Assembly (NCBI GenBank): GCA_044892525.1
Contig: CM097886.1
Span: 9,300,001 to 9,364,000 of the forward strand
Reading direction: 5' to 3'
DNA: 64,000 nt
DNA from: Schmidtea polychroa
Taxonomy: Eukaryota
Part shown: positions 31,195 to 55,324 of the stretch, in pieces
Position numbering within the stretch: the first letter of the stretch is position 1
How the letters are laid out: every line of letters starts with the position of its first letter
Notes under the pieces: model-generated
What the model was told of the DNA's origin: nothing
Seen by the model: only the letters and a program-made list of their open reading frames with translations
The model's database searches: none
Translations under genes and position numbers: made by a program

Positions 31195-32866
31195 CACTAG
31201 GACGGCCAGAGCGGTCATTTTGACCGTTAAGCAATTTCATTTTTATTTTGTGAGAAAACGAAAAGGAATTAACGTCTCATATTTTGTGACAATTATTCAT
31301 TTTTAGTGAACTTGTTGTGCATATCAAAGCTTCAATTATAGCATTTGTCACGACTGAGATAATGAGGCCATCCCCATGGAAGGCCGAACCGGTCAATTTG
31401 ACCGGTATCTTGAAACACACAAGAAAGTCACACATAATCATCTTACATACTAGAAAATATAAAACCAAATATAATTTACACACAACCGAAGCATTTAACA
31501 GTCATTTGGGAATGTTTTCCACAGTAAACTTTACTACATACATGGCATATAGCTCCGGATTTGTTATGACAATGAGGAGCAGAACAAGTTTTTCGCTTCT
31601 TTAATTTTGGTTGTTCAGAACAGAGTTCACCAGAGATGGGACTTGCTGTTCGACGGCTTTTGAACTCCTCACAAAGAGATGTAGCTAATTCAAAAATAAA
31701 ATCCCTTCTTTTTATAGTTGATCCCATAGCATCTTTGAAAATAACATGAGCGTTGAGAGCTGCTTTATCAAGCAAATCATAGAAAGTAGCGACTGGCCAT
31801 CTTGCTGTTGCGGCTTTACTGCTGTATAAACGCAACATGCTATCCATGGTATCTACAGCTGTCTTATTTTTGTTATAAAAGTGTATCATTTCAGGCTTTC
31901 TCTTTTCGTCAGATCTCACACTAGCAGTAGAATGGAATGTTGACATGACAATGACTTTCTTGTCCGATTTGCCTTGATAGGAAACAGTGACAGTGTTTTG
32001 ACACGATAAATGAGTCGATTCAAAAAGAGGCTTTTTCTCCAAGTGAGCTGATGATAAAAAGCGTGAATTTAATCTTACAGTACCAACCAATGTTGTTCGA
32101 TTTACAAGGAGATGTTCAGCTAGTGAGAGACTTGTAAAGAAATTGTCAGTGCAGACATTGTATCCTTTATTGAAAAATGGCTCCATTAGTTTCCTGACTA
32201 CAAAATCACCCAGCCGTAATCCACAGCGTTCGTTTCTATCGTGAGCCCCCTAAAGCACGTTGAGCAGCAATTCTTTTAGTTGGCATATTTGATTCTAAAA
32301 TAATGATAAAAACTCCGTCAGTAAAATAAGAAACGTCAAATTTATTATTGGATTCTAATGAAAACACGGTTTTATAATGTTTGTTATCCCAAGAAGTTCA
32401 AAGATTTTCTATAACAATTATTAGATATTGTCTTATGACATTTCGTTAAGTTTTTCGTTTGATTCTTTTAATTTACCAAATTTCAAAACTTAGAACTCTT
32501 AATGCTTGCTTAATTACACTTTTAATAAGCACTATCTTTGAATAAAAGCAAGAGAATATTTATAAACAAGAAATGAAGTATACATACATACCAGTCTGAA
32601 TAAACGCGAAGAAAATGTTAAAAATAGTGTAGCTTTGTGTCAGCTAAACAAATATTTTTATTTCATTGTTGTAAGTAGTTTAATAAATTAACTACTGTTA
32701 GAATAAAAATAGTTAAATTTTGAAAGCGTGTTAGTAGCACAAAGAAAGTATTGCTAAATGAGTTGCATCATAGAAATCTCAGCATGAAAATAAGGAGCAT
32801 ATGTGCACCGGTCAAATTGACCGGTTTGGCCTTCCAAGGTATAAAATATTTCCGGCCGTCCTAGTG
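31195..32866 (-). mobile_element. piggyBac internal-deletion derivative with TTAA TSDs
   Basis: 13-bp TIR CACTAGGACGGCC at both ends; TTAA at 31191-31194 and 32867-32870; subterminal palindromes CCGGTCAA(A/T)TTGACCGG. Confidence 0.95.
31476..32186 (-). pseudogene. C-terminal half of a piggyBac transposase
   Basis: TDNFFTS, GTVR, YNKNKTAVDTMD, RWP, and a Cys-rich C-terminal finger; N-terminal half missing. Confidence 0.9.
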
Positions 32867-33272
32867 TTAAATCAAAAATCAAATAAATAGAGAAACGTTG
32901 AGAATGATAGGTTTGGGCCAAACTGGTTTTCAACATTTTCTTCAAGTAATCAAGTAATAGGTTTAATTTTTGATGACTTTGTAATGCATTTGACTAAATA
33001 ATTTTTTCAATAATTTTCTAAGAATATTTCCATTTACACATTGATGAACTTTAAAAAAACATAAGCTAAGAAACCAGTTAACTTTATCAAGGACTTCAAA
33101 TTTATTTGAAAATAATTGTAAGATATACTGAAATTTGTGATTTAGTTTGCTATTATGATCAATCAATATATATCATCTCTAGTTAGGTGAAATATTTGTA
33201 GGACATAATAAGTTTATTATGTCGTTGTTACATAAGTCGACTTTAGCGTCAAAATGTGTTTTTAAAATTATA

Positions 33273-35598
33273 TGTAAGGTTGCCCGTGAATATTAAACAA
33301 ATAAATAACAATATGAATTAAAGATTTAGTTAAACGAAATATATATTAAATACAAAACGATAACCAAATAATAACTAGCTGCACGCTAAAGTACAGATAT
33401 CGGTTATACAAACCGCCCTAAAGATTATTTCAAAGAATCAAGGCTGGCCTTAAATGTGCCAATAGCCCGATATAGGTGAACGGATAAAGAAGAAGGATTC
33501 CCGAGGTTTTACCGCTATACTATTAACCCAGATAAATGGTTAATAGTTGAAATTAAAACAGTCAAAACAGCTACAAAAAGTCTTGGCTGGTGACTGTGCC
33601 CTTTNNNNNNNNNNNNNNNNNNNNNNNNNNNNNNNNNNNNNNNNNNNNNNNNNNNNNNNNNNNNNNNNNNNNNNNNNNNNNNNNNNNNNNNNNNNNNNNN
33701 NNNNNNNNNNNNNNNNNNNNNNNNNNNNNNNNNNNNNNNNNNNNNNNNNNNNNNNNNNNNNNNNNNNNNNNNNNNNNNNNNTTAATAATTCTGCACTGAG
33801 TAAAAGCGAACCCGAAAATTGGTTATTAAGCTTAATTTCAATTGAGGCTAATAGATATTGGATTCAAATTCCAACCAAATAATTATTGAGACTAAATTTC
33901 TAATCGATGCTAAATATTGGATCTAAATTTCCAATCGAAGCTAAATATTGAATCTAAATTTCTAATCGACACTAGTATTCTAAATTTCTGATCGACACTA
34001 GTATTCAGTGAATCTAAATTTCTGATCGACACTAGTAGTTAGTGATTCTATAAATATCCTGGATTGTGCTTGATCGATAACTAAGTTAATAATGGTGAGC
34101 CTTAAATATTTGTTCTTCTTCTTATTTTCGCAATAATTTTTTGTCGCCCCTAAAACTAAATTTTTAATTATATTTATACTATTTTTTACTTACCTACATC
34201 TATTTTTAGTAATTATTTAATTACTAAATTTGTGTGTATAATATATAATAAAATACTATAATTATTTAAAATCTAAATATAGTAATTGTTTATTACTATT
34301 TATAATTAAGTTCTAAACTTAGTAATTTTAATTCTATTTTTGGTATTTATTTAATACTATTAATAATCAATCTTTATTTAATTCTAAAGCTTTCCTAATA
34401 CTTTTAGTTCCGGTTCCTACTGAACCCCAACATGTCTTCCCTCTAACAAGATTTTCGTCCCGAAAATTAAAGCGGTAAAGACAGGGNNNNNNNNNNNNNN
34501 NNNNNNNNNNNNNNNNNNNNNNNNNNNNNNNNNNNNNNNNNNNNNNNNNNNNNNNNNNNNNNNNNNNNNNNNNNNNNNNNNNNNNNNNNNNNNNNNNNNN
34601 NNNNNNNNNNNNNNNCAACTAGATCAAAGTTTCAAATCACAAAATCAGAATAATCAATTATTGTTCTTATAGGATAGATCAAATGTTATTGTTTGGTAAA
34701 TGTTTATCAATTTGAATAATTGGATTGGATTGGATTGTCGAAGGTGTTGGGATTGAGGACGTATAGCAAATAGCTAGGTTTGTTGAATACATAGCAGAAT
34801 TGCTGATATTTTCTCTTTTTCATGACTTTGGCACTGTCATTACGGATTCTTTGTTCTACTATGTCCGGTCTGTAACTGACCACCAATGTCTCCCGTGTAC
34901 TTACTTCTTTGTACACGATTGATGAGATGATATAAGAACCCTCATTAGCCGCCTCCAATACTCCGTAATCGGGGAAATTGGACACGGCTACTTCATGAAT
35001 TGGGCCTCCGTCGTATTCCTTGATACGCGGTTTCCATTTACTATCGGGTCTCTGCCACCAACTAGGATCTTCTCTGTCGGCATCTTCCCGTATTTTAGTT
35101 GAGTTACCTCTTCCAATGAATTCGCCTTCTTTCACTATGATTGGCTCTCCTGCAACCATGGATTCGACCTTTGTTGTCAATATCTTGGTCAATGCTGGAT
35201 CTGGTGGCTGATAGTGAGTTTCTAGCAGATCGTCATCCTAATCCTGGATGGATATCCTAGGCATTTTCTTTTTTGTACTCATTAGGATCTCCTTTTTTCT
35301 TTTTGTAGAGGTAGGGACATTTTTCTCCCTTGCCTCTTTCTGGGTCGGTTCGACCGTTGTCTTCATTTTGAATTTCAAGTCTTGTAGTTTGAGTAGTGGT
35401 ACTACAGCTTGTGGTAATGCTCCTCCTTCTGCTCCTCCCTTGGATTCGATCAACGGGGCCAATGCTTTCAAGATCTTGGTGACCCGTTCAACCAGTTTTT
35501 CTGCTGGTGGTGATTTTTCCGTTTCCATTTTAGCAGAATTCACCACTCTACCATCATTGGTAAGCGTGACTTGGAGGCAATTATCATCTGTGCTCTCT
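33273..35598 (-). mobile_element. Inverted 3'-end copy of the large Gypsy element (accessory ORFs, PPT, LTR 33273-34432)
   Basis: Reverse complement of about 53103-55260; ORFs 34707-35192 and 35238-35546 nearly identical to 53509-53994 and part of 52771-53463; PPT AGAGGGAAGA; contains two N gaps. Confidence 0.92.
33605..33781. other. Assembly gap (further gaps at 34487-34615 and 38745-38885)
   Basis: Runs of N. Confidence 1.
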
Positions 35599-38533
35599 CA
35601 TAAGTGCTTCTTATATAGCATTCTAGCACTTTTAAAAGAGAAGAAATAGGTCGTAATCATCAAAGAGCCGCCAAATATTACGAATTTTTAAATCTATTAA
35701 ATTATGATGAAGTCACAGATTGTCCAATGAGACTGTGTAACATTCCCAAATTTGAGAGGAAAAATCCTGAGTTAAACTTGTCCATAAACGTTCTGTCTTA
35801 TAATCCAGCCAGTTCCTATTCTGATATTTCTGAGGATTATGTAGCTCACCACCCTCATCTTAATATTATTCATCGTTCTAAGGTTATCGATGGTAGGCCG
35901 ATTTATTTATTACTTTTGAGTAATAAAGATAAATATCACTATACGGCCGTTACAGATTTGGAAAAGTTAATGAATTGTCATTTAAATGAAAATGTAAATG
36001 TTCAAATAAGGTGTAACTGGTGCCCACATTGTCTTAATGGGTTTAGATATAAGAATGCTTTTGATCAGCATGTAGCTCTATGCTGTAAGAATCAGACTGG
36101 CACAACACTCTACACACTTCCTAAAAGTAAAGATTTATTATTTACAGATTACGCAAAAACCGTTACACCTCCCTTTGTAATTTATGCCGATTTTGAATCG
36201 GTTTTACCAGAACATGAAACACATCATCAAATACATATACCTATCTCAGCAGGTCTTTTACTTATAAATAATTATACTAATACTAAATTTTATTTTTATT
36301 TTTTTGGACCGAATTGTGTTTTGGATTTTTTAAGGAAAGTGGAGGAAATTTCTGTCACAATTGTCCTGCCATATTATGAACTCAAAGGTCATAAAGGCAT
36401 GTCTACTTTGTCTTTTGCTCAGGAGCGTGCCTTTCGATCTAGCACAATTTGTTATTTATGTAAGAAAGATATTATTAGTCCTGTAAGAGATCATTGCCAT
36501 TTTACTGGCAGATATGTCGGAGCGGCATGTAGGAGATGCAATGTCTCTCGCAGGATTAATAAGTTATTAGCCGTTGTATTTCATAATTTAAGAGGTTATA
36601 ATTTACATCATATTTCCCTTTGGGAATTAAATATTATACCTATCTCTACAGAGAAATTTATTTCTTTAATTGCTTATATTAACAAATTGCCTGTTCGTTT
36701 AATTGACAGCGTGCAATTTATTAATTGTTCTTTAGCTAAAGCTGTGAAAACTCTAACTACTTTTCCTTTAACTTCGTCTGTCTTTCAAGGGTCGATGATT
36801 CATTCTAAAGGTGTCTTTCCGTATGATTTTGCTACTTCTTTAGATGTTCTTGAATCGACGTTTGAATTACTTTCTATTTGGTCTGATATTACGGAAGATC
36901 AGTACGCTGAGGCTCAACTAATTTGGAGTCAGCATAACTGTAATAATTTGTTAGATTATATGCTAATCTACCTAAAATTGGACGTATACCTCCTCGCAGA
37001 CTATTTTCAGCAATTCCGCGGTAAGGCAATTGCTTACAATGGTCTGGATCCACTTAATTTCTATGGGATTCCCGGTATGTCATGGGCCTCAGCGCTTATG
37101 ACATTAACGGAACCCATAGAACTTTTGCAGGACATGGAAATGTACAATTTCTATGAGGGAGGTATCCGGGGTGGGTTAACATTTGTTAACAAACATTACA
37201 CGGCTACTTCAGATGACACAGAATTATTGTACATAGATATAAATAATCTGTATGGTTGGGCTCTTAGCCAAAATCTTCCGTATGGTGATTTTTCTTGAGT
37301 GAATGATAATTTGAATGATGTTTTGCTTGAATGTATGAACACGGATATTGATAACCTTCCATATGGGTACACTATGGAGGTAGATATCGATATTCCGGAA
37401 TGTGTGCATGATTTTTTGAATGATTTTCCGCTTGCGCCGGAAAAGTTGTGCCCACCTAATTCAAAGGTTGAGAAGCTTATGCTCACGCATTGGCCAAAGA
37501 GGAACTATGTTCTTCATTGGAGGCTTCTCAAATTGTATATAGAATTAGGTGCGGTGGTTGTAAATATTCATAGATGTATAAAATTTAAACAAGGACCTAT
37601 ATTTAAATCGTATATAGACACTAATACGACTTTAAGATCACAGTCTACAAGTGAAATATATAGGGACTTGTTTAAATTGTATAATAATAGCCTGTACGGT
37701 AAATCCGTTGAGAATCTCAAAAAACGTATGAATTTGAGGTTGTGTAATTCATCCGAACAGATGATATTATACTCCTCAAAGCCGACTTTCAGAAAGTCTA
37801 TAAGAATCGATGGGGATAGCCGCACATTTGGAGAAGAACTCAATTTGTTTAGATAGACCTAGCTACATTTGTCAAACAGTACTAGATCTATCTGAACTGC
37901 GGATGTACCAGCTCTAATATATTGATTTGGAGAAGTACAGGCAACAATTCAATTGCATAATAAATATTATAGCCGGTGATACAGATAGTTTCTTTCTTGA
38001 GATTAAAAATTTAAAATTATCAACTTTATTACCTCAGATGATCTCAGATAATTTATTGAATACATCTAATTAATTATGATCCAACACACCCCTTGTATAA
38101 TAGGAACCTTGAGTCTGTTATCGGGAAGTTTAAAGATGAGAGCAAGGGATTAGGTTACTCAGAATGGGTTTTCTTACGTCCTAAATGTTATATTCTTTTA
38201 GGTAGTAAGGAAACAGTGAAAGCAAAGGGGGTTAAATTACCTGGGACATCAATAAATCATGAATCTTATTTAAATTGCTTTAATAATAATCAGGTGATTT
38301 CTGTACCGCAGACTAGAATAGGTACTAGAAATCACCAACTTTTCACATTTAAAAACTCGAAAATTGCCCTAAGTAATAACGATGATAAGCGCACATGGCT
38401 AGTAAAAAACATAAGTTATGTATTTGGGCATTATTTAGGAGTTGATGACCTTAGCGATTATGATGAGGAGGAATTCGGTCCAGCTCCAAGTCCCAGTTTC
38501 GATGACAGTTCGTGGGACGAAGATGAAATGTGA
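35598..38533 (+). pseudogene. polB: Polinton/Maverick-type family B DNA polymerase, near full-length but disrupted
   Basis: CFLYSILA, VIYADFES, endonuclease-VII-like VRDHCHFTG...C, FHNL.GY, KGVFPY, GIRGG, YIDINNLYG, KLYNNSLYGK, GDTDS, GKFKDE, KAKGV, DDKR; in-frame TGA at 37296-37298 and frameshifts after 37850. Confidence 0.93.
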
Positions 38534-38989: not shown

Positions 38990-39620
38990 AAAATATGACC
39001 TTGAAAAAAAATTAACCTTGAAAAAAAATTGACCTTGAAAAAATTTGACCTTGAAAAAAAATGACCTTGAAATAATTTGACCTTGAAAAAATAATATTTT
39101 TAAAAATAATAATAATAAAATAGTCAAATGACCTTGAATAAATTTAATATTGTTTTCTCGGGAAAATGATAATAACTTTGCCAATATTAATGATGACCAC
39201 TATAGCTCATTCGAAAGGTCTTGCACTAAGCTTCAAAATAAGATATCGATCGATGAAATACACTGATGGGAATGATCTCTTTTGGCATGCCAAATAGTAG
39301 GGCACCGCTAGCACACTTAATAATATTTTTGAAAAATAATAATAAAAATAATAATATTTTTAAAAAATAATAATAAGACCTTGATGAGTCATCGCGATGA
39401 GTCATATGACCTTGGATGAGTCATGCGACCTTGAAACGACCTCGAGGAGTCATTGTCTTTGTTTAAAGGACCTTGGAAAAAATTTCTCCAAATTGATGAG
39501 AATGACCTTAAGAATGACCTTGAGAATGACCTTGATGAGTCATCGGATGAGTCATGGTCTTTGTTTCAATGACATTGGTGAGTCATATGTCTTTGTTTAA
39601 AATTTGACCTTGAAAAAAAT
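38990..39620 (+). repeat. Array of TGACCTTGAAAAA units and GATGAGTCAT units downstream of polB
   Basis: Directly visible repeats; the same TGACCTTGAAAA core occurs inverted at 55325-55990. Confidence 0.85.
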
Positions 39621-39661
39621 TTAAAAAAAATTTCTACCGAGGTAGGTGCTATCGGTGCCCT

Positions 39662-41190
39662 GTGCCAGCGGTACCTAATCCATCTACTGACCTTCAGGAG
39701 ACGGAATCAGAGGAGAGTTCCGATGATGAACCTAGTATGGCCACCATACTAAGCGAGTACCATGTAACCTTGCCAGGGAAAGCAAAGGTAAAAGAAGGGT
39801 CAGATTCCCTAACAAAATGTTTAAAACTGGTGGATTCCAGATATGAGTACCAGCAGAAGCTGGATAGACAATTGGAAAAATTTGGAGAAACAAAGATTAA
39901 AATTCACGAAATCGATACAGTAGTAAAACTGATATCGCAGGTTGAAGATGACCCAAAGTATCATAACGACACGTACAAAATCCTAAGGAAATTAGGAAAA
40001 CTCATGGAACATGAGTGGGATCTCCAAGATGCTCAACTCAATATAAAACTCCCCAGGATAAAGAGTATAATCTCGATATAAATGTAAGAAGCCGAGCCGA
40101 TAAATTAACAGAAACATTGACAAGTATTAAGCATCAAGGATATGACTTATACTTATGTGGAATAAAATTAGAAACAAACCAAACACTTTTACAGAACGGG
40201 ATACTCCCAGGTAGAGTGACGAAGCTCACAGCAAAGAGAGCACCGAAGCCAGTGGCAGTAATGGATCAAGATAGTGTATTCTTGATTACTCAGATGGAAA
40301 TCGAGAGATTGAAGGAAACTCAACAATTAACCCAGCGACTAGGGTTGGAATTGCAAAAATCTTCACGAGATGGAGAAACCATAAAGCAAATACTAGATTG
40401 GATGTTAGTATTACGAATACCCGTATATTTGTTGGAAGCAATAATTCCACTTATACTACCAGTGGTAAAGGAAACAAGCCCATTCCAGACGCAAATCGAA
40501 GCACTGATGAGGAGAAATGGGAAAGCTATCCGAAGTCAGCCTGATCGACAAGGCAACATTAATCTAGACGTGCGAATGATTGGAAAAGAACCATCAACAA
40601 TGATTTATAATTGTTATATCAAGGTCAAAATATTAAGGAGAAATGTGATTGCCACCGATCAAACTACAGGTATATTCGTGATATTCCATGGTAGGCAAGT
40701 GGATGATGATGAATATCTAGTGGATGTGGGTTGTCTACCGTTGGCAAGAACCACAGTAATGATCATCCCAGTAACTCCACCCGAATCACAGTGGTCATTA
40801 ATGAGACTGTCAGATATAGCAAACGAAATTGTGGAAGAGATCGAGGAAATAAGACTAGAGGAAATAAATCCCTGTCAAATGGTGGACATTGACGAGGAAG
40901 ATTACTTCTCAGAGTACGTCAGATTAAATCCAGGAGAAACAAACGTAGGAGCTACTACGTCACAAGCTGTAACAAATCCGGAGACTGAAAAACCCCCGGA
41001 GAAAGTGAAAAAAGATGGACGAGGACGTCCTAGAAAGGATCAAATGAAACCTCCACCCAAGGAGCAGTTAAATCCGGAAACGATTCGAAAAATTCAACTA
41101 AAAACATTAGCAGGGATAGCTCAAGAAGTGGACGACCAGGCGGAAGAAGAGACAACGCCAGAGAGGTCGTTATTGTGGCAACGTGTATAA
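39662..41190 (+). pseudogene. Accessory ORF with two ubiquitin-like domains and an AT-hook (one frameshift near 40053)
   Basis: QLNIKLP/QDKEYNLDIN...LYLCGIKLETNQTL and INLDVRMIGK...VIFHGRQVDDDEYLVD resemble ubiquitin QIFVKTLTGKTITLEV...LIFAGKQLEDGRTLSD; GRGRPRK at about 41017-41037. Confidence 0.7.
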
Positions 41191-41193
41191 CAA

Positions 41194-43380
41194 ATGATCG
41201 GGATTATTAGGCCCGAATGGAGAATTCCAAAGATCAAGGGAATCGAAGTGAAGAAAATAACGAAAGAGGTCAAGAAGACAATGGATAAAGTATCCAAAGA
41301 TGTATCAACAGGAAATATTCAGGATGCCATAGAAGCATTTGTACAGCAAGGATTAACAAGAGGGAAAGTGGTAACATCGCTATCATTGTTAATTCAAAAT
41401 GCCTTAGCGCGAGCAGGGAACGATAAAAGGCTTATAGAACGAGAAATCGACCAAATAGTAGAAATAGTAGATTATTACCTTGAGGTGTGGATGACAGTAA
41501 ACAAATTTTGGGAAAAGGAAATAATCCCAAAACCACGATATGAAGTCGTGGAAGAAGCCATAAATAATGGTAGTTCAGGCACAGGGAACATAAGAAGCAT
41601 GATCTTGATGTTTCTGGTAATGATGGGCATATTAAAACAAACTAATTCACTGACAGTATTTGACTGTAGTAATCCTAAACTATCTCAGATATATTTGCTG
41701 GTAGATGCAATTGAATGCAAAGAGGCGTATCCGGAGAAGGTTCATCAAGGGAAAAAGGTAGAATATTACGTCTACCAAGAGAGTGAATTTTATAGAACTA
41801 CGATAAAGGAATGTAGAATTCAGAGAGCTACATTTGAATATTATTGCGGTAGTAATAGATATTCTGCTTTCCTATCCGCAACACTAATACCAAGGCCGGT
41901 AAACATAATGCCCGAAGATTGCCTAGATGCATTTTGAAACGGAAGTGTGAGGATAGACAACGAGGTATCAATCTCGGCAGAAATTAGGAAAACATTGAGA
42001 ATAACAATCACTCGAGGGGGAACAATTGCCTCAGATGGAACCTGCGAAGGCAGAAAGGAAATTCGCGGTAGCAATTTAGTTTCCTATGTGGTAGATATAG
42101 AAGATTACTCAGTGGAATTACGAGAATACGAGGGAACATTCGATGTGGCCACAGGAAAATTGATGGCACATCCGCAATGCAATGCCAAGTTCAGTAGTTG
42201 TAGAACGGGAACCACCACATTAATTTACGAAAAAATGAGAGATCATTGTTAGTTGGCATTCCTCAAGAAAATTCCTTTTTGAAAATTAAATGGAACTAAA
42301 TATCGGGACTCCCAGAATCCAGAAAAGGTTTGGGATAAAGCAAAAACGTTGAAGAAAATCAACAAACAAGAGAAGGAAGATATCGGAGAGGAAAACACAC
42401 CTCTAGTGTTGATATCGGAAGACAAAACAAAAGCAATTCAATTCGTCCGAAAAGATAAAAAGACTAAATGTGGAAAAAGAATATACGAGACGAACTACAA
42501 AGGAATTTTCCTGTCAAGAGAATATATTCGAAATGCCAAGGCCTTACATATAAAGGATATCAAAATCACGAATTATATAAATAATAAAGTAGATTATTTA
42601 TATCATGACCTGCAAGGACAAATGCAAGATATGTATCAAGTGAAATAGTCGTGAAATAATCGTGAAATAGTCGAAATAGATTAGCAATATCTATCGTTAA
42701 CCCAGAGTTGGTTACTCCAATGTTATTGGAAGATGGAATGTTTGGCTGAATCATGGGAGAAGCTATATATAGCTATGAGTGTAAACCAGTAGAAGTACAA
42801 TTAGCCAGATTTAATCAATGCACGCTAGAACTACCAGTGTCATATCAACCAGCAATATGCAACCCGGCAATATCACCATTATACAAAATAAATGACATGT
42901 GGATATCTTTGCCGGAAAGAAAACCATCTACACAACGTGTAGAGACCTTGGAGGTGACTAAATTAAAGGATACTATGGAATTCAAGTCATTAGATGAATT
43001 AGCTAAAGGAGGGATTTACACTCAGGACGATATTGAGGAAGCAAGAAGGACATTGCTATTCCCACAAATCAGAGGTATCACGGAAATTATAAGAACAATT
43101 TATCATGATACCTTAATACGGCCAGATTACAATTTATTATTTGGACCGGAACACTATAAAGAAGCAGCAAAGAACGTAATGATGAAAATATGGGGACGAT
43201 TTACTAATTTTGGTATTTTCGTCGCCGGATGCTCAGGAATTTACGCAATATTTGTAATTTTAAAGCTGATAATTACACAATTGATGTCAACATATAGAAT
43301 ATTCAAATTTGGCGGATGGTCATGAAAACTCTTATTAGGACTATGTCCTACGTGTGCAGAATTTGCATTATTCAAACATC
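41194..43380 (+). pseudogene. env: Chuvirus-G-like (gB-like class III) envelope glycoprotein with N-terminal leader, internal signal peptide and C-terminal TM
   Basis: MILMFLVMMGILKQTNS/LTVFDCS; C.I...YYCG; GTCEG; CG...YETNY; YINNKVDY; GEAIYSYECKPVEV...C..ELPV; LAKGGIY.QDD...LLFP; hydrophobic FGIFVAGCSGIYAIFVIL; several stops and one frameshifted zone. Confidence 0.82.
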
Positions 43381-44020
43381 ACAGAAAAGAAATCAAAGAA
43401 ATTAGACAGAAACATTTGGTTAAACATGAAGTAATTGGAACAGAAATGGATGAATATTCCAGTTATCGGGACGATAACAATTCAAAGGGAGGAGGTAATG
43501 GAGGCTCTTGTGAAACATCTTCAAGACCAAATCAATCACGAAAACAGAACTACAACAAAAAACCAAATCAGCAACAAAGAAAATCGAGATTTAAGGAATA
43601 TCTTCCTCCATATGACCAATCAAAGTAAATCTAGGTGAGAAGACAGTCCTCAGAAGGAGAATATGATAGTTCCGAGCAAAAATTCGACATAAGGTCACCC
43701 AGATTCAAGAGAAGCCCAAGATATGTACAATTGCCAACCCTGAGGAGTTTACCAACCGCACCAAACGATGGGCTGGAACATTCAAGGGAAACGACACTCA
43801 GAACAGGACGCCACCATTGGAAAATTGGTGAAGATACCATATTTAATAATCTGACATGTTCAACATTGCCAGAATTACCCGAAGTGCACTATCCAAAGGA
43901 AGCGTTAGAGTCACTTAAAGCTAAATTTAAAGAATATAATCCTCAACTGAGTGATCCAAAATTACTGAAGCAGAACAAACAAGAGCCAATACAATCGGTA
44001 TCTCGCACGATACAATCCTG

Positions 44021-47000
44021 ATGGTCAATAATCCAGTGAACTTGGATAAAAAGCCAATGATAAAAATAAGAGTGAACCGACATACAGTCAATGCGGTGAT
44101 AGAGTCAGGAGCAGATGGTACCATAATTGAAGCTAAATTGTTGAACCATCACGAATTACATTCGTTAAAACCGACAGGAGTAAAATTAACAGGAACAAAC
44201 GGATCCTCATTAAACGTAATAGGATCATTATCTTGTCAGATTAAGCTATGTGACCAAGAGCTCCATCACGACATCATAGTGATGAGAAGTCTCCTGGCCG
44301 AATGTCTATTGGGAATGGACATCCTAAAAAGACTACGAGGAGTAGTATTCGATTGCACATCTGGATTGTTAATCCGAGCACGAGGTAAAAAGAGAAATAT
44401 TTACAACGATAATACAGCTTATATAGATCATACAACCATCATACCACCCAGAACGGAAACAGTATGCTTTGTAGCTACAAGCAATAATTGGGAAGGTGAA
44501 GTTGTATTCGAACCAGACGAAAGGTTTTCGGAGAAATACAACATACCAGTTATTCATAGCGTAGGCTTAATAGTCAATGGCAGAATACCAATCAGGGTAG
44601 CCAATCTGGACGTTAAACCACTATACTTATACCCAGATACCAGAGTGGGCAGAATCTGGAAACAAAACGAACAACAAGCCACGGAAGAAGGGTCGATACT
44701 CACCATAAAGGCTAAAGAAAGAGAGCCAGACATTGATTACTACGACGCACCTACGGCCAATAGCAAAGTGCTAACCAGAAAGGAAAATATTCAAGCAAAT
44801 ATGCTATTGAGGAAATACGACCAGGTATTCGCGAAACATGAATACGATCTGGGAAAAACAAACTTGTTAGAACATGAGATTGTTCTCACCAATACAAAAC
44901 CTATAAAGTTGAGACCATACCGTATTCCATTCAGTCTGGAGGAATCAGTAGACAAACAGGTGAAATTGATGTTAAAACATGGCATAATCAGGCACAGTAA
45001 ATCACCATATCAATCGCCAATGATGGATCAGTACGATTGTGTAACGACTATCGCATGGTTAACGAGGCAACATGCAAAGATAGCCATCCATTGCCATTAC
45101 TAGATTATATTTATGGACGCATGAGAAACGCTAGGTTTTTCTCAGTAATGGACGCTCAAAAGGGATTTTATCAAATTAAGTTAAAAGATGAGACTATACC
45201 AATAACAGCGTTTTCTACGAGTATGGGTCATTACGAATATAACGTAATGCCATTTGGACTCACGGGAGCTCCAGCCACATTTCAAAGAGCAATGAATTTG
45301 ATGCTCATGGATGTACATCATGCGATGGTATACATTGACGACGTCATAGTATTCTCGCCAAATTTGGAAAAACACTTGGAGCATTTGGAAGATGTATTCA
45401 AGAGGTTGATCAATGCAAACATGAAAGTGAAACCGACCAAATGTAAATGGGCTGAACCAGAAGTGGTATATATTGGCCACATCATCTCACGAGATGGGGT
45501 CAAACCGGATCCAACTAATGTCGAAAAGGTAAAGAATTTCCCGGAGTCTAAAACCGTTAAACATATCAAATGGTTTTTAGGCCTAGTTGGATACTACAGA
45601 AAATTCATTAGAAACTTCTCGGTTATTGCTTTTCCATTCACGCAGTTAGAAGGCAAAAACGTCAAATTTGTGTGGGGAACAGAACAGCAGGAAGCATTTG
45701 ATATGCTCAAGGAAAAACTCGTCAAGCCACCTATATTACGATTTCCAGACTTTGAGAGACAATTTTTGGTTATGAAAGATGCCAGGCACTCGGGCATAGG
45801 TGCTGTGCTAGGTCAGAGAGATGACCTAGGAGATGAGTATGCAATTGTATACGCTAACAGAGGATTAAAACCACACGAGAGAAACTACGCAGTGATAGAA
45901 CTAGAGGCTTTAGCAATTGTGTATGCTATAACCCAGTTTAGGACATATCTATGGGGTTGGAAGATCATAGTGTACACCGATAATAGACCATTACAGTGGC
46001 TGACGAAACACACAATGGATACCTCAAAACTAGTCCGATGGGCATTAATTTTACAGCCATATGACATAGAAATCCATTATAGAAAAGGAGATCATAATGG
46101 TAATGCAGATGCTTTATCGAGAATGGACCAGGAGGAAGAAGCAGAAGATGTGAAGGAAGGGCGTCTCGAAGGGACTATCTTCACATTGACCAGAGAAGCC
46201 AACAAACTAGCCGATTTGATGGAGGCACAAAAATCTGACGAAGAGATCAATGTTATTCGTCAATCCTTGGAAGCAAAATACGTGCCCACAGAATTCACCA
46301 AATACTGGGAAAAGAATAAAGACAAGTTTGTGCTGGAGGAAGGATTAGTTAAATATTCAGATGTAAGAGATAATGTTATAATGGTCTCTTAGAAATTTTG
46401 TGAAGCACTCATGTTGCAGTATCACGATGGAGCCTTAGGAGGACACCTGTCATCCAGAAAAACATTGTCGAGATTAAAACAAAAATATTTTTGGCCAGGC
46501 ATGAAACAAGACGTTAAAACCTGGTGTCAGACATGTAAGATCTGTATCACCAGGCGAAATACCGGAACGAAACCCCACGTACCAATGAAGCCGATGCCTG
46601 TACCATCTACACCCATGGAAATGACGGCAATGGACGTGTTGGGGCCATTCAAAGAATCTAATAGTGGAAACAAGTACATATTAGTGTTCTGCGACTACTT
46701 GACTAAGTGGCCGGAAGCCTACCCGACGCCTAATCACAAAGCTGATACGATAGCTAGAATTTTCGTTGAACAAATTGTCTTTAAGTATGGAGTACCCACG
46801 AAGTTATTAACGGATTGGGGAACAGATTTCATGAGTAATTTGCTCAAAGGAATAAATGATTATTTCGGAGTTCTAAAGTTGAATACTTCCCCATATCACC
46901 CACAGGCGGATGGGTTAGTAGAACGATTTAATGGAACATTAGCTAACATGTTAGCATCATATGTAAATTCAGGGCAAACGGACTGGGACATCCACATTCC

Positions 47001-47430
47001 ATCCTGTTTATTTGCATACAGAAATGCAGTGCACGAAGGAACAGGTGAAACACCATTTTACCTAATGTATCTGAGGTAAAGTAAAAAATCTGTTGTTTTT
47101 CCCTAAAGCAACACAGTATTTAGATCAAGAAAATTATCTAATAGAGATGAGGGAAAGGATGCAGGAAGCATGGACTAGAGCAGGTCTCAGTATAAAATAT
47201 AATCAGGAAGCATCAAAAGATTATCATGACCGAAAAGCCAAGGAACGTGGCATAATGTTTGGAGACCAGGTGATGTTGGAAAGTCATTATAACAAGAAAG
47301 CTTATCACCAAAACTCATGCGGAATTTCAAAGGGTCATATGAGGTATTGAGAAATTCAGATACAAATCTCATACTACAACTTGTAGCCAACCGAAAAGCA
47401 GAACCAATAATGCTAATCGGTGTAAAAAGT
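44021..47430 (+). pseudogene. pol: Gypsy-type pol: protease, RT, RNase H, integrase (disrupted)
   Basis: IESGAD (catalytic D to E), RPYRIP, DAQKGFYQI, MPFGLTGAPATFQ, YIDD, ELEALAIV, YTDNRPL, HHCC finger, DVLGP/TDWG/VERFN; frameshift at about 45020 and several stops. Confidence 0.95.
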
Positions 47431-47489
47431 GTGAAATCCCAACAAAAGGGATCTCCGGAAATTCAAAAGTAAAAGCACTAGAGAAACAG

Positions 47490-48465
47490 GTGAAACCAAA
47501 CTCCAATGAAGAAGCACAAAAACACCGATACCCATTGAGATCACGGGGTGTTCCAAAATCAGTAACTTTTATGTTGATAATAAGTTGTATGATGACCTTT
47601 GCTATGGAAAAAAGGGATAAAAAGGCCTATTTTCAGCCTATGGCGATGCGTGGAAAATTTACATTTTATAAGAACCTATCACGGAATTCGTATACTTAAA
47701 ACGTGTGATAATGCCACAAAATTCAATCTGCATTTCTACAATAAGTACTTACGGGTCCGCCAATTTAACTCAGTAGAAAGAGAATGGGATTTGTATGATT
47801 TAAAAGCCGAGACGGATTACAAACTGCACATCGCAGCATCAAGGTTATATCAGAGTGGTTGGTATACCTATCATGTATCAAATTGGATTCTAAGGACGGC
47901 GGATTTCACAAATCGCATATCGATATCTTACGAAAAAGATAAAGTTAAATTTAGTCAGCTACTTATCGGGGAGGAAAAGGTAAAAGTCAATATTCTAGAT
48001 GGACTAATCACGAGAGAAACAATATGGTTAGTATCGAACTCTCCTTCCAAAGAATATTCGGTTCTAGTTATATACTATAGTCCGAGGAAACGGCAGGACG
48101 ATAGGTGGTTCGAGGTATTCGAGGAGATATTACCTCTTAAACATCCAGTTACAACGAAAATACCACCAAAAGTAGTTAGGGAGAATATGGTGATACATCC
48201 CGCGATGTGGCAACATCTCAGACAATTGCCACCTATCAAACAAATTTCTTGCCAAACGACTCCAAACCTGACAAACTGTTGTGATTGCAATGTCATCACA
48301 AACTTCAACGCGAGATACATTCTGAAAATACCCACAGTGGTATGGATCACGGTATCGGCCGTACTATCACTAATAACCACAGTGATAGCTATGGGTATTT
48401 GGACCAAGCTATATTTTAGACAAGCCATAAGGGCTTACGACGGAGTGCTGATGTCGAAATTATGA
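47490..48465 (+). pseudogene. Second type I membrane protein after integrase, with an FN3-like motif
   Basis: Hydrophobic SVTFMLIISCMMTFAM (signal-like), WDLYDLKAETDYKLHIAA (FN3 tyrosine-corner-like), C-terminal TM IPTVVWITVSAVLSLITTVIAMGIW, short tail; one frameshift near 47655. Confidence 0.55.
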
Positions 48466-48494
48466 CAATTACAGCCTCCCCAGAGGTAAAAATC

Positions 48495-48567
<73 letters not shown>

Positions 48568-48571
<4 letters not shown>

Positions 48572-51500
48572 GGTGGGTCGAATGTTAATAAATTTTGAGT
48601 TCAAGAAAGGAAACATGGTTAAAAAGTTGTATTTTGGTATAGAAAAATCGAATCAAACCATTTTACTTAGATTTATGGACATTTACTGCTCCCAACTTTT
48701 CTCCGAAAATGCAGTTCAACATAAGTGTGAAAACAATGTAATTTGGCTAGTGTCGGAATGTGTTTTGCGCCTTTGTCCATATTTAGATGTAGCTTTCTTA
48801 AGAGCTTATAAGTATATTATTTACTCTCTTGGGCTGAGATAGTATATTCTGTGTCCTCATCCCGCATTGAAATATATCCTGACAACGTCAGTGATTAGGA
48901 AGGGCCAAATTTGAATTATCCTTTTCAAAGACAAAAATCAACTTTCGAAATTATTTTTTATTAAAAACATCCAGCCAAAAGTTTAGAAATGTATTAGCGA
49001 GGGCATAAAAAGAAGTCACATGAAATCAGCTTTGCTTTGCACCTTGGGCAATTCCTTCCTTGATTTTTTACACAGTAGTACCATACCATGTCTGGACTTG
49101 TGACCAAACACTTTGCAACTGGCAGAAGAAACATCTTTGATGGCTCTTTCAACGGCTTGAGAATGACAGGGAAATTGTTCTAATGTAATTTTCTTATTCA
49201 TCTTCAATTCATGATCCAATATATGAGATAAAAGAGGGGGAGGCGTCAAATTACATTTTGTCCAGTCAATCATGTCAGCATATGATGTAGCAGACGACTG
49301 AAGAAAGACAGTATTCTTGTCCATAGTGCGAATCACTTCGGAAGGGAGAAAATTTTGTCTTGCAGTTATGATTTTTTCTGTTGCAAACTTTCTGATTTCT
49401 TCATCATCATCACCAACAGCAGCTAGGAGTATATTTTCTGGATGTGAGAAGTAATTGTTGTTCTGAATGACAGGAAAGATGATTTCTTGGTCTGATGGAT
49501 CCAAATCCTGCAGAAGTTGGAGCATATAAAAAATATTTCTTGCACCATCTTGGCATGACGAGTGAATCTTTATATAAAACCATGACGGTCCATAGAAATT
49601 GACAATAAATTTCACTATTCGCATGAGAGGTTCAGATGGAGCAGTTTCGGACATATATAGTCGCAGAATTCTATTAGCTTTCGTTAGCCAGCGACTGTGA
49701 TTCAAATTTCCTGGTTGTGCCATTTGTAGAAAAGGGACATCCTTGTTGTTGTGGTACCCTTTCTGGACTGCCAAGCATACTCTGAGGAAATACAATTGAT
49801 CAGTGTTCAATTCTTTCTTGACATTTTCACTAATATCTACGACCTTTCCAGGAAGGGACATAAAGGCTACTACGGGCTTGTCTTTTGGATCAAAATCAAG
49901 AACGCTTCCTATTTCACCACATGACGTTTTTGGACCTTTTGTTTCTCCACCATCGACGACTGAAAAATACTTCCTGAATGGCAATTCATTTGCATGCAAC
50001 AAGCATATCAGCCATTGTAGAGGTCGCCCTAGGCTTTTTTCGAGTCTTCTGATTATTCCATTATTTTTTCCGGTGTTTGTATTGGTTCCATCGCACACAA
50101 TTGCTTGAAGGGTCAGTGAGGACTGCGTGCTAACGATGATTGACATGATTTCTTTGCCAATATCCACAGCTTTACTACTTTGAGGTACAACATGATCGAT
50201 ATATGTATCCCCTGGAAAGGCGACAATCACATAATGCTCCTCTTTTAGGATCCTTCTATGAAGTAAGGTGGAATCTTGTTTCCCGTCGAAACCGAGGCAA
50301 ATCAAGTTTTTCGCTTCTGCTGAATGCTGTTCAATTTCTCTCTCCCTCCAGTACTTTCTCTGACGTCGTAATTTTGCGGGATCGATGATTGTTTGAGAGG
50401 ATAACAGTTCCATATCTTTCAGAAAAGCGTTTACTAGCAAACACGTGTCTCTGTTGCTCACACCACATCTGTCAACAGCTTTACTTAATTCAGGATAATG
50501 TCTTCTATTTTGAAATTCATCACATTCTTCTACGCTTGACTCTGAGCTTTCTGTTGAATTGTCTAACTTATCTTTACTTTCATCACTAGCGGCTTCACTC
50601 TCCGTGTCACTTCTTGAGGTCGGATGTAGATCGTTAACTTCAGTGTCCATTATTTCATTTTTCATTTGTTTTCCTTTTCCTGTAGGGCTGCTTTTCGTTT
50701 GTTTTCTCTTCAATTTTGAGGTTTCCTGTCTGTCCGTATTTCCGATTTTCATGTTTCTGGTAGTTTGTTGGTCAATCCAGAACTCCCACTCTAAGGTAGG
50801 AATTTTCAAGGCCAATCGGCATGTACACTGACTTCTTCCACGAGCACCATCATTAAAACATTTGCAGCAACATATGTCAAACAATTTGGAAAACGAGCTT
50901 AACTTATCTTGAAATTTGGCAGATGACCTCTTGCATACTGGATACTTCTCTAATTCACGCACTTTTGATATTAGTCGCTTGACACGAACCACAATACTAC
51001 TGAACTCAACAGTTGGGATACTTGCCTTCATATAAATTTCCTTCACCTTATTTGCGAGAAGAGTTGCTTGTTCGTTAAAGCCAGTATGAAATTGCGTACA
51101 TTTCTCATTGTAACAGTAATCACGAAACACATCTTCACAAGTAGGTAATTGGTTTCTGGGTAGTTCACAAGTTTGACCAAACAGACAATGACGTGATTTA
51201 CTTCTTGTTTTGCGAAATTGCTTATTTCTCTGTCCCTTCATAACTGCTCTTCTGTACTCAGCTCCTGCAAAATAAAAGTGAATCATCAAGTTAACTTTTT
51301 TAATTATGTCCAGCAAACACTTGACATCCAATCGAAACAAATTAAATTATCTGAGTTTAGACTGACTAGTAGTATCCATGTGGATTATGTGTTGACTGTA
51401 GTGTGTGTGTTAGTATTGTTCAGAAGAAATTGTCTTTGTGAGTGCTTGTGTGAAGGTGCTTCCGTGAATTAACCTCTCTATACATGCACGCGTTAGCTTG

Positions 51501-51724
51501 GACTTGTGAATAGAGCATGTCAAAAATGGTCTTTCTGCAAGCGTGTGACTGCTTGCAGGATGAATTTACAATTTTTACTGGGATAGTACTAATACATACA
51601 AACAAAAGTTGGGACCTGTAAACCCTTTTAAACAGCAGTCTTTTGCAGGGATATTTCATTTTCTAGCATAAGCACAACTTTTTAGGCATGTTTGGAGAAA
51701 AAAAAAATTTTCGACCCACCCTAA
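48568..51724 (-). mobile_element. hATm-like DNA transposon inserted in a (TA)n microsatellite
   Basis: 14-bp TIR TTAGGGTGGGTCGA at both ends; both flanks are (TA)n. The subfamily call rests on recalled TIR and motif pattern. Confidence 0.85.
49016..51340 (-). CDS. Intact DDE transposase (hATm-like), up to 774 aa
   Basis: GFDGKQD, CDGTNTNTG, QWLICLLHANELPFR, HSRWLT, PCHSQAVERAIK; no stops; true start may be the downstream Met near 51240. Confidence 0.88.
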   Translation of the reverse strand: MFRLDVKCLLDIIKKVNLMIHFYFAGAEYRRAVMKGQRNKQFRKTRSKSRHCLFGQTCELPRNQLPTCEDVFRDYCYNEKCTQFHTGFNEQATLLANKVKEIYMKASIPTVEFSSIVVRVKRLISKVRELEKYPVCKRSSAKFQDKLSSFSKLFDICCCKCFNDGARGRSQCTCRLALKIPTLEWEFWIDQQTTRNMKIGNTDRQETSKLKRKQTKSSPTGKGKQMKNEIMDTEVNDLHPTSRSDTESEAASDESKDKLDNSTESSESSVEECDEFQNRRHYPELSKAVDRCGVSNRDTCLLVNAFLKDMELLSSQTIIDPAKLRRQRKYWREREIEQHSAEAKNLICLGFDGKQDSTLLHRRILKEEHYVIVAFPGDTYIDHVVPQSSKAVDIGKEIMSIIVSTQSSLTLQAIVCDGTNTNTGKNNGIIRRLEKSLGRPLQWLICLLHANELPFRKYFSVVDGGETKGPKTSCGEIGSVLDFDPKDKPVVAFMSLPGKVVDISENVKKELNTDQLYFLRVCLAVQKGYHNNKDVPFLQMAQPGNLNHSRWLTKANRILRLYMSETAPSEPLMRIVKFIVNFYGPSWFYIKIHSSCQDGARNIFYMLQLLQDLDPSDQEIIFPVIQNNNYFSHPENILLAAVGDDDEEIRKFATEKIITARQNFLPSEVIRTMDKNTVFLQSSATSYADMIDWTKCNLTPPPLLSHILDHELKMNKKITLEQFPCHSQAVERAIKDVSSASCKVFGHKSRHGMVLLCKKSRKELPKVQSKADFM

Positions 51725-52228
51725 TATATATATATATATATATATATATACGTAGAGCTCCAGGTAGCATTAAAATTCGGCATATGTAGATCTTTTATAA
51801 CAAGACTCATGCATATCTTTTTAGCTTATTATGGCATATCAGTATATCTGATATTTTGGTTAATAATTTTTATTTCTAGAATGCAGAGCCATCAGATATC
51901 TCAATATCAAGGAAGACAAGGAAGACATAGCACTACTGAAGGAGAAACTCATATATAAAAACCTGGAGAAGCAGGTAACTGAACAAAGTCGAAAAGGGCA
52001 ACGGCACTGGTTCTACGGTCATTGCTCAGGCATACCCAACAATTTCAAATTCGACGAGGCCCCAAAACGTCAAATGATAATTTCAAGAATCCCGGGCAAG
52101 CATAACGCCAGCATTAGGCTTACCGATGTCATGCATGAGTTTGGCAGACATATCTGACCAACCACCTGTGGATACACGCCATTAACAAACCATTTACGGT
52201 TTATGTTCCTGGTGCCACAAATTCTATT

Positions 52229-52890
52229 TTGCAGCAAAAGCATACAACCCTCGAAATATCTCACTATTATGTGAGGGAATGGACACCATCGTCGCAATGG
52301 AAATCTTGGAACCCCACAAGGAGACACAAACGAGATGGGTCAGCGAACCAAACTGGAGATACAATGTCAATGACAATGATATCAAAACGTTTGGACCCCA
52401 GACAAGAGGATAACCTCACCATTTTCCTAGCAGCTCATTACGCCACACTACGACAATTCCTCAAACCAGCCATTGTGGCAATTTCAATTTCGCATTTTAA
52501 CGGCGATTTAATCCTCAACACTAGAGTTACCCCCAGATCACAGGTCAAACATTACCAATCACATGCGCATGTTATGACCGAAAGGGAAATAACCGGACAG
52601 TTTGATGGAGAAGACTGTGCCGAAAGAATTAGGAAATTCTGCAATGGGAAAATCATCGTGGGATTATTGGTAAAGGATCTATTGGAAGTAATTAGATTTC
52701 CAATGCAACGCGCCCTCGGAATCCGTGAGTTAAGCGCAGCTAAATGCCTCGAAAATAGGGACTTAAAGAAATGCAACGGGTATTACCGTTTGGCATATTT
52801 GGCATATTTTGGCGCATCGTTTCTCGGACCTTCAAACAGGGAATGATGTTACGACTATTAAGGAAATATATGACAATCTGCGAGATATCT
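52229..52890 (+). pseudogene. ISG20/REX4-like DEDDh exonuclease domain with degenerate catalytic motifs
   Basis: AIVAISISHFNGDLILNTRVTPRSQV...GKIIVG aligns with REX4 [26 protein letters not shown]...GRILVG; NDVTTIKEIY in a shifted frame matches EDARATMELY; Exo I DxE replaced by AAH. Confidence 0.68.
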
Positions 52891-53994
52891 GAATTGATGA
52901 TATTTCACCCGATACCCGAAAATGTGGTGACATCACAAATAAAACAAACGGAACCAGAAACCTCAAGCATGCATAAACCCTTAGCTATGGAGAACTATGT
53001 AAAAGAAGACATGCCCAGGTCCAAGTTAATGAAAATAGTGGAAGAAGATTCCTTGTCGCCGCCAGCCATCTCAATTGCTGACGAAGACGATTATGCCACT
53101 TGCGAGAGCGCAGATGATAATTGCCTCCAAGTCACGCTTACCAATGATGGTAGAGTGGTGAATTCTGCTAAAATGGAAACGGAAAAATCACCACCAGCAG
53201 AAAAACTGGTTGAAAACGTCACCAAGATCTTGAAAGCATTGGCCCCGTTGATCGAATCCAAGGGAGGAGCAGAAGGAGGAGCATTACCACAAGCTGTAGT
53301 ACCACTACTCAAACTACAATACTTGAAATTCAAAATGAAGACAACGGTCGAACCCACCCAGAAAGAGGCAAGGGAGAAAAATGTCCCTACCTCTACAAAA
53401 AGAAAAAAGGAGATCCTAATGAGTACAAAAAAGAAAATGCCTAGGATATCCATCCAGGATTAGGATGACGATCTGCTAGAAACTCACTATCAGCCACCAG
53501 ATCCAGCATTGACCAAGATATTGACAACAAAGGTCGAATCCATGGTTGCAGGAGAGCCAATCATAGTGAAAGAAGGCGAATTCATTGGAAGAGGTAACTC
53601 AACTAAAATACGGGAAGATGCCGACAGAGAAGATCCTAGTTGGTGGCAGAGACCCGATAGTAAATGGAAACCGCGTATCAAGGAATACGACGGAGGCCCA
53701 ATTCATGAAGTAGCCGTGTCCAATTTCCCCGATTACGGAGTATTGGAGGCGGCTAATGAGGGTTCTTATATCATCTCATCAATCGTGTACAAAGAAGTAA
53801 GTACACGGGAGACATTGGTGGTCAGTTACAGACCGGACATAGTAGAACAAAGAATCCGTAATGACAGTGCCAAAGTCATGAAAAAGAGAAAATATCAGCA
53901 ATTCTGCTATGTATTCAACAAACCTAGCTATTTGCTATACGTCCTCAATCCCAACACCTTCGACAATCCAATCCAATCCAATTATTCAAATTGA
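52771..53994 (+). CDS. Accessory ORF pair of unknown function separated by one in-frame TAG (53461-53463)
   Basis: Both ORFs in the same frame; near-identical copy on the minus strand at 34707-35546. Confidence 0.55.
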
Positions 53995-54102
53995 TAAACA
54001 TTTACCAAACAATAACATTTGATCTATCCTATAAGAACAATAATTGATTATTCTGATTTTGTGATTTGAAACTTTGATCTAGTTGTTATTTATTATTGCT
54101 TG

Positions 54103-54154
<52 letters not shown>

Positions 54155-54256
54155 ATCAGTTTATTTAATTTTAATTTTAATTTTTGTTATCAGCTGCAAC
54201 GGCCCTGTCTTTACCGCTTTAATTTTCGGGACGAAAATCTTGTTAGAAGGAAGACA

Positions 54257-55260
54257 TGTTGGGGTTCAGTAGGAACCGGAACTAAAAGTATTAGGAAAGC
54301 TTTAGAATTAAATAAAGATTAATTATTAATAGTATTAAATAAATACCAAAAATAGAATTAAAATTACTAAGTTTAGAACTTAATTATAAATAGTAATAAA
54401 CAATTACTATATTTAGATTTTAAATAATTATAGTATTTTATTATATATTATATACACAAATTTAGTAATTAAATAATTACTAAAAATAGATGTAGTAAAA
54501 AATAGTATAAATATAATTAAAAATTTAGTTTTAGGGACGACAAAAAATTATTACGAAAATAAGAAGAAGAACAAATATTTAAGGCTCACCATTATTAACT
54601 TAGTTATCGATCAAGCACAATCCAGGATATTTATAGAATCACTAACTACTAGTGTCGATCAGAAATTTAGATTCACTGAATACTAGTGTCGATCAGAAAT
54701 TTAGAATACTAGTGTCGATTAGAAATTTAGATTCAATATTTAGCATCGATTGAAAATTTAGTCTCAATAATTATTTGGTTGGAATTTGAATCCAATATCT
54801 ATTAGCCTCAATTGAAATTAAGCTTAATAACCAATTTTCGGGTTCGCTTTTACTCAGTGCAGAATTATTAATCAGTTAGTTAATATTTATATATATATAT
54901 TAATACCTATCTCATTTTTCTCACAAATAAAGGGCACAGTCACCAGCCAACACTTTTTGTAGCTGTTTTGACTGTTTTAATTACAACTATTAACCATTTA
55001 TCTGGGTTAATTGTATAGCGGTAAAACCTTGGGAATCCCTCCTCTTTATCCGTTCACCTATATCGGGCTGTTGGCGCATTTAGGGCCAGCCTTGATTCTT
55101 TGAAATAATCTTTAGGGCGGTTTGTATAACCGATATCTGTACTTTAGCGTGCAGCTAGTTATTATTTGGTTATCGTTTTGTATTTAATATATATTTCGTT
55201 TAACTAAATCTTTAATTCATATTGTTATTTATTTGTTTAATATTCACGCGCAACCTTACA
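54257..55260 (+). repeat. 3' LTR, 1004 bp (TGTTGGGG...CCTTACA)
   Basis: Preceded by purine tract AGAAGGAAGA; the same boundaries in the inverted copy at 33273-34432. Confidence 0.88.
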
Positions 55261-55324
55261 TGTAATTTGTGGAGTCAAATCTTTTTGAGTTAGATTGAAC
55301 TACCCATCGAACCTAACAGATACG

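Follow-up and report, generated by a model that had tools for sequence, protein, structure and literature searches.

Duplicated helix-bundle and ubiquitin-like modules with an AT-hook in the cargo region of a decayed Burro-like errantivirus of Schmidtea polychroa

Burro and GYPSM1 are giant Gypsy elements of planarians encoding Gag and CCHC knuckles within one polyprotein and, in the case of Burro, Ubi2/SUMO-like, BCL2-like and Env segments have been described in frame before PR-RT-RH-IN (Arkhipova & Yushenova 2019, PMC6431247, available text). Furthermore, six planarian GAG-ENV-POL elements have been listed, among them Smed_errantivirus_4, which has a length of 14,923 bp and is of the HSV/gB type (eLife 2026, PMC13524379, available text). 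The main text of the latter article makes no mention of ubiquitin.

The window analyzed in this study, i.e., the whole stretch of 64,000 nucleotides (C2:9300001-9364000), originates from the AT-rich, 781 Mb genome of Schmidtea polychroa. Its interval 39662-41190 corresponds to the cargo that, in a compact Burro-like errantivirus with a single Gag-Env-Pol polyprotein, separates nucleocapsid and envelope; the identity of the element is practically certain, and the copy residing in the window is broken. Within this broken polyprotein, two modules, each composed of a helical bundle and a ubiquitin-like domain (Ubl), likely form, together with an AT-hook, a non-conjugatable protein- and DNA-binding adaptor (probability approximately 0.55). 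The following features were distinguished (window positions):

39072..39688, no strand assigned: unrelated dispersed repeat, rich in GACCTTGA, abutting the truncated element (blastn 71-79% to loci unrelated to the 5' end of the element)
39689..48533, plus strand: decayed ORF1 region of the family-A Gag-Env-Pol Gypsy element (90-93% nucleotide identity to a natural copy)
39797..40018, plus strand: helical bundle H1 of the first module (alignment and model)
40034..40245, plus strand: Ubl1, frameshifted at 40054 in the window copy only (profile search, AlphaFold2 model and copy comparison)
40297..40536, plus strand: four-helix bundle H2 of the second module, predicted HEAT-pair/TND-like fold, homologous to H1 (model pLDDT 86.4; fold searches)
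40558..40773, plus strand: Ubl2, with a conserved acidic DDDE and without Gly-Gly (ISG15 structural match, Z 12.3)
41020..41037, plus strand: AT-hook core RGRPRK in an acidic/basic linker (conserved in family copies)
41158..41514, plus strand: Bcl-2-like domain, with a copy-specific stop at 41188-41190 (profile against the PDB)
41596..41652, plus strand: hydrophobic stretch, directly ahead of the Env match
41653..43325, plus strand: Env, class III fusion glycoprotein, broken (four separate matches to Pfam PF24664, best E 2.2e-32)
43955..47079, plus strand: protease, reverse transcriptase, RNase H and integrase, broken (Pfam)
48568..51725, minus strand: DNA transposon with short inverted ends, inserted in the element (repeat ends; gap in the match to a natural copy)
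51723..55144, plus strand: rest of the element, comprising ORF2 pieces and a diverged 3' LTR from about 54257 (match to a natural copy)

Family A, to which this copy belongs, represents a Gypsy errantivirus of ~14.9 kb (~14,930 bp) featuring one Gag-Env-Pol frame of ~3,370 aa, in which the domains are arranged in the order Gag, six CCHC knuckles, two four-helix and Ubl modules, acidic linker, RGRP, Bcl-2-like domain, hydrophobic stretch, Env and PR-RT-RH-IN. In a natural copy, Gag is located ahead of the Ubl/AT-hook region and Env behind it; moreover, this copy encodes a second ORF of 761 aa and possesses LTRs of 1.1 kb being 99.6% identical, as well as a 4-bp target duplication. The assignment to Gypsy retroelements, as given in the initial annotation, is supported by the PR-RT-RH-IN domains (Pfam) in their Ty3/Gypsy order and by the TG...CA LTR ends, PBS and target duplication read from natural copies. 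The downstream frames of the window copy encode the class III fusion glycoprotein, protease, reverse transcriptase, RNase H and integrase (Pfam), and its 5' LTR, capsid and zinc knuckles are missing, since it is 5'-truncated and decayed. Its match to the element begins at 39689; the sequence upstream, including the first ~27 bases of the interval 39662-41190, belongs to the unrelated repeat rich in GACCTTGA.

A genome search with the Ubl/AT-hook region resulted in 1,558 candidates, of which 150 were scored; at least 138 of these matches were assigned to family A and at least 12 to the sister family B (44% identity). The region is therefore present in other copies, as had been presumed, and a host insertion restricted to the window copy was rejected. 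Several family-A copies are uninterrupted, with open frames of 3,366-3,369 aa, and four other compact families feature frames of 3,334-3,516 aa with two modules each, families C, D and E being ~20% identical to family A. The one-base frameshift assumed near position 40053 is real (40054) but confined to the window copy, the reading frame being intact at this point in 19 of 19 others. Similarly, the stop at 41188-41190 corresponds to a sense codon in 18 of the 19 other copies, the remaining one (1/19) being gapped. Since frameshift and stop are private to the window copy among 20 copies, the ORF 39662-41190 is a fragment produced by decay. Its previous interpretation as a separate ORF encoding an accessory protein had to be abandoned, because the region is internal to the Gag-Env-Pol frames of other copies, i.e., to a polyprotein of ~3,370 aa.

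In agreement with the GAG-ENV-POL or Burro-like organization, a class III Env lies in frame between Gag and protease, and Ubl and BCL2-like motifs are located between Gag and Env. Family A and Burro have in common a single polyprotein with Gag, CCHC, Ubl, BCL2-like segment and in-frame Env, but differ in size, with ~14.9 kb and 3,370 aa for family A compared to over 30 kb and 4,873 aa for Burro (PMC6431247, available text). Moreover, the pre-Env region of family A is devoid of a MATH domain and contains two Ubls, each with a bundle, whereas the available text of PMC6431247 names one motif and neither bundle nor AT-hook. MATH, BIR and ankyrin cargo, which in combination with giant size characterizes Burro sensu stricto, obtained no Pfam matches in the scanned parts of family A. 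Such cargo is present in the giant family of the genome, a type of 4,791 aa that also possesses the module, RGRP and a Bcl-2-like domain. The combination had been considered unfamiliar for Gypsy elements, which does not hold for the Ubl cargo, as it is in print for Burro (PMC6431247, available text). Smed_errantivirus_4 features the same GAG-ENV-POL order and a similar length (14,923 bp vs. ~14,930 bp), and its Env segment resembles those of families A and B, as compared by eye; since its sequence differs from that of family A, it presumably represents a sister lineage (PMC13524379, available text). In the literature covered, no report of the bundle or the AT-hook in these elements was found, although Grohme 2018, its supplements and Repbase could mention them; the membership of each Ubl in a duplicated four-helix and Ubl module was likewise not found in print.

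The surroundings of the element contain further mobile sequences. The segments 33265-35600 and 53101-55268 represent an inverted duplicate of the 3' end of the element (96-99% identical, ~17.5 kb apart); Polinton terminal repeats around the region were rejected, because this inverted repeat matches the element's own 3' end. The interval 35619-38533 is Polinton-like, featuring a protein-primed B-family DNA polymerase in broken form together with an endonuclease VII-like match; similar pieces occur inside a giant element locus (L047). The intervals 970-3018 and 31476-32249 hold a hAT transposase and a piggyBac-type DDE transposase fragment. The DNA transposon at 48568-51725 sits in TA repeats, and its 776-aa ORF is without a Pfam match. 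ORF2 (L023:3186-5468; window 52139-53991) obtained no Pfam match and a weak ISG20L2 exonuclease match (E 0.087).

The two ubiquitin-like domains proposed in the initial annotation were confirmed, with all of its quoted motifs found in place. The window ORF by itself received no Pfam match, and word-index protein searches with the family-A region returned 0 matches, near or longer. Alignment depth for a Ubl profile was provided by the addition of families C, D and E, which are ~20% identical to A, and the four-family profile matched NEDD8 over Ubl1 (E 7.9e-6) and ISG15 over Ubl2 (E 3e-4) in the PDB. Likewise, the AlphaFold2 model of a natural family-A copy (10 rows, pLDDT 82.8, pTM 0.55), as suggested for checking both units, contains two beta-grasp domains, which were confirmed by Foldseek; ATG5 and PI3K rows with TM ~0.2 were set aside, as they are accounted for by the two Ubl folds. 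The VIA match list mostly spans Ubl2, for which ISG15 was aligned with Z 12.3 and an rmsd of 1.7 A over 74 residues. In the ESM Atlas, the best score was 0.85, and Ubl clusters scoring 0.81-0.82 are leads only. C-terminal Gly-Gly is absent from all Ubl units inspected, including both units for which this had been noted before, so that they are non-conjugatable and do not belong to type I. Integral (type II) Ubls such as RAD23, SF3A1 and OASL also represent beta-grasp domains without a conjugation tail, but the Ubls of the element differ in being part of a retroelement polyprotein, in their acidic surface motif and in the absence of a UBA partner.

Each Ubl is preceded by a helical bundle, which had been overlooked previously. 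Comparison of module 1 with module 2 by means of hhalign yielded 97.7% over 109 columns, and the helix-bundle and Ubl module is, at the sequence level, a duplicated unit. A resemblance to the LUBAC-tethering motif was rejected because HOIL-1L matched through its UBL only. The giant Burro-type family (4,791 aa) contains three candidate modules around its MATH domain, the third with an iE of 0.001 and the other two aligning weakly, and the module number per element ranges from one to three. A metagenomic search covering 1.84 billion representatives provided 150 listed matches, mostly polyubiquitin-like repeats, among which at least seven proteins cover the module in full, after removal of an eighth, long match of low complexity; three of these seven carry Gag or zinc-knuckle domains, and three have RGRP downstream. 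Judged from these alignments, the module is common to five compact families, the giant Burro type and metagenomic relatives.

The LEDGF/p75 integrase-binding domain (IBD) and other TFIIS N-terminal domains (TNDs) are right-handed, HEAT-pair-like bundles making use of two hydrophobic pockets and a basic patch (PMC9987994, available text). The helical unit is of the same size and may have a similar fold, but differs from the IBD by featuring four predicted helices instead of five and by its fusion to a Ubl. The 80-residue model of the unit consists of four helices (pLDDT 86.4). Its best five Foldseek rows were LEDGF IBD, yet with E values of 0.6-1.7 and TM of 0.43-0.49. Among the best 50 VIA rows, 10 were titled TND, IBD, LW or Iws1 (Z 7.6-8.9), and HEAT/ARM solenoids achieved equal or higher values (best Z 9.8), where Z under about 13 may reflect a common arrangement for bundles. 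In the same search, the LEDGF IBD was aligned with Z 8.9 and an rmsd of 2.5 A over 79 residues, and the MED26 TND showed 22% identity; the latter also appeared in the sequence profile search as a weak, full-length natural match (E 0.64). For 9 of 12 flatworm TNDs, at most one of 200 shuffles reached the score obtained with the unit profile, one TND scoring as high when reversed, and in the reverse search, this applied to 1 of 13 units. Values obtained by hhalign for bundle versus TND amounted to 0.6% and 17%, and with deeper profiles to 78% or 53% compared to 5% or 2% for reversed sequences. An 18-sequence bundle profile recovered no TND among its 44 PDB matches. The modelled bundle may resemble TFIIS-N-terminal/LEDGF integrase-binding domains, although the results of the tests are at variance and HEAT repeats provide an equally good fit; true homology to the TND appears doubtful. 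A cluster of many near-identical TND-bearing ORFs, which are presumably Iws1-like by motif, is located at about 164-172.5 Mb of C2 (L057-L067).

Selection was evaluated for 20 family-A copies by distinguishing variants common to at least two copies from singletons. As the numbers of substitutions are low and variants common to several copies did not arise independently of each other, the shared-variant dN/dS values are to be read with care: 0.10 for Ubl1 (8 synonymous/3 nonsynonymous), 0.04 for Ubl2 (13/2), 0.03 for spacer and H2 (20/2) and 0.07 for the AT-hook zone (8/2). Across the region they ranged between 0.03 and 0.27, similar to Gag (0.10) and Env (0.05), and higher values were obtained for singletons (0.14-1.04). 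This comparison across copies, which had been recommended, indicates that both Ubl units are under purifying selection.

The AT-hook recognized initially is well preserved, RGRPRK being retained at 20 of 20 inspected loci of family A and at 6 of 7 of family B, with the seventh B locus lacking a pattern match. The RGRP core with basic flanks is conserved, the Pfam AT_hook match being sub-threshold (E 0.027, one relative). RGRP was also found in the giant type, but families C, D and E lack it, and the motif is therefore dispensable. For the analysis of insertion flanks, 30 LTR loci each of families A, C and E were considered, leaving 15 (A), 16 (C) and 18 (E) host flanks after de-duplication, with one near-duplicate pair per group possibly remaining. 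The AT fraction over 100 nt was 0.66 for family A (n=15) compared to 0.77 for the AT-hook-less families (n=34; p 0.04), and the lower AT content of family-A flanks was observed at 20, 100 and 300 nt (p 0.02-0.04), the difference not being significant at 1,000 nt (p 0.085). Flanks in AT triplet repeats numbered 0/15 (A), 4/16 (C) and 2/18 (E), insertions of family C (L128-L157) often residing in such microsatellites. Steering of insertion to AT-rich DNA by the AT-hook was rejected, as the opposite was found. Chromatin tethering, as envisaged earlier, is still conceivable as such, but the AT-richer insertion sites it predicted were not observed.

The AT-hook is followed by a Bcl-2-like domain, which had likewise escaped notice. 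A six-sequence profile matched Bcl-xL in the PDB (E 5.4e-6), and Pfam Bcl-2 was found in 4 of 6 members, none above the cut-off. This profile points to a BH1/BH2 helical domain, family A itself featuring a degenerate BH2. The hydrophobic stretch at 41596-41652 lies below the 19-residue hydropathy cut-off of 1.6; it may serve as Env signal peptide and Bcl-2 tail anchor, in which case all upstream parts would be cytosolic.

With respect to the adaptor favored here, the helical bundles paired with Ubls may act on chromatin, although a nuclear role is to be regarded as tentative. The protease of the element would release the adaptor from the polyprotein and, by analogy, it could travel with the core and aid docking on chromatin or transcription complexes. 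Retroviruses obtain such docking from MLV p12 or from host LEDGF. The dispensability of RGRP, the less AT-rich flanks of family A and the weakness of the TND match count against this explanation, and the adjacent Bcl-2-like domain, together with MATH, TRAF and BIR-RING of the giant type, points to apoptosis/ubiquitin signalling instead of a nuclear adaptor.

The strongest alternative, unlikely but deserving attention, follows this direction: the Ubl modules would act as decoys or adaptors engaging the ubiquitin and cell-death machinery of the host (proteasome receptors, E3s, DUBs) and, with the Bcl-2-like domain, would keep host cells alive, as hinted at for Burro (PMC6431247, available text). 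The Bcl-2-like domain adjoining the modules and the MATH, TRAF and BIR-RING additions of giant relatives are consistent with this explanation, as is the Ile44-equivalent hydrophobic residue in 4 of 5 compact-family Ubl2 and 5 of 6 metagenomic units. However, when the 19 Ubl units were compared with a near-canonical ubiquitin taken from the same genome, just 7-15 of 76 positions were identical, Leu8 being kept in 1/19 and Arg42 in none. In addition, the conserved acidic DDDE of Ubl2 occupies ubiquitin positions 51-54, and the best structural matches (VIA) span ISG15, SUMO, SF3A1 and FAT10 without preference. A Leu8-Ile44-Val70 patch with a basic rim was not found, position 44 being partly kept in Ubl2 and the register at 68-72 being uncertain. 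Close ubiquitin mimicry, as suggested in the initial annotation, is unlikely given these residues.

Less probable still is that the element carries its own LEDGF-like tether in Gag, namely a captured TFIIS-N-terminal/IBD bundle plus Ubl, duplicated and accompanied by an AT-hook, which would make a host cofactor unnecessary for docking of the integration complex on chromatin or elongating polymerase. LEDGF combines its IBD with AT-hooks; the disagreement among the bundle comparisons described above bears on this proposal. The modules may also be structural spacers or folding aids in a very long polyprotein without any host partner, which we consider improbable: the variable module number and the divergence of families down to ~20% identity, with integrases being 70-88% identical, would fit, but the shared-variant dN/dS is as low as for Gag and Env, and an acidic motif at the surface does not vary among families. 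Very improbable, finally, is a function of the Ubls as a late domain recruiting ESCRT for budding, since, despite their position after the nucleocapsid, where retroviral late domains sit, the absence of PTAP/PSAP or PPxY from the pre-Env region (0/5 families) and the ability of Gag-fused ubiquitin to substitute for a late domain, rescue by ubiquitin requires Leu8 and Ile44 (PMC2958808, available text), a requirement at odds with the loss of Leu8 and with the Tyr, Lys or Arg found at position 44 in 5/5 compact-family Ubl1 units.

Ubiquitin units of another kind were observed in BEL/Pao-type families (DUF1759 Gag; L042-L046), in which Gag is preceded by one or two near-canonical ubiquitins. Some of these families possess a dual-specificity phosphatase, and one features EAP30/Vps36 (ESCRT-II) and proteasome-subunit fragments; a piece of the latter type is located at 10938-11504 in the window. 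The first ubiquitin unit of one locus (L042) ends in Gly-Gly, and ESCRT recruitment or DUB processing would be more plausible for this unit than for the Gypsy Ubls.

The domains of the family-A cargo are real and their context is ordinary, as ubiquitin-like cargo has already been published for this kind of retrotransposon. The annotation of a published planarian retroelement group is refined from one Ubl motif to a repeated helix-bundle and Ubl module that extends over compact families, the giant Burro and metagenomic relatives. Should the bundle prove to be a true TND, a mobile element would encode a domain of the type recruited from the host by lentiviruses to target their integration, which would offer a testable handle on site choice by abundant elements in stem cells.
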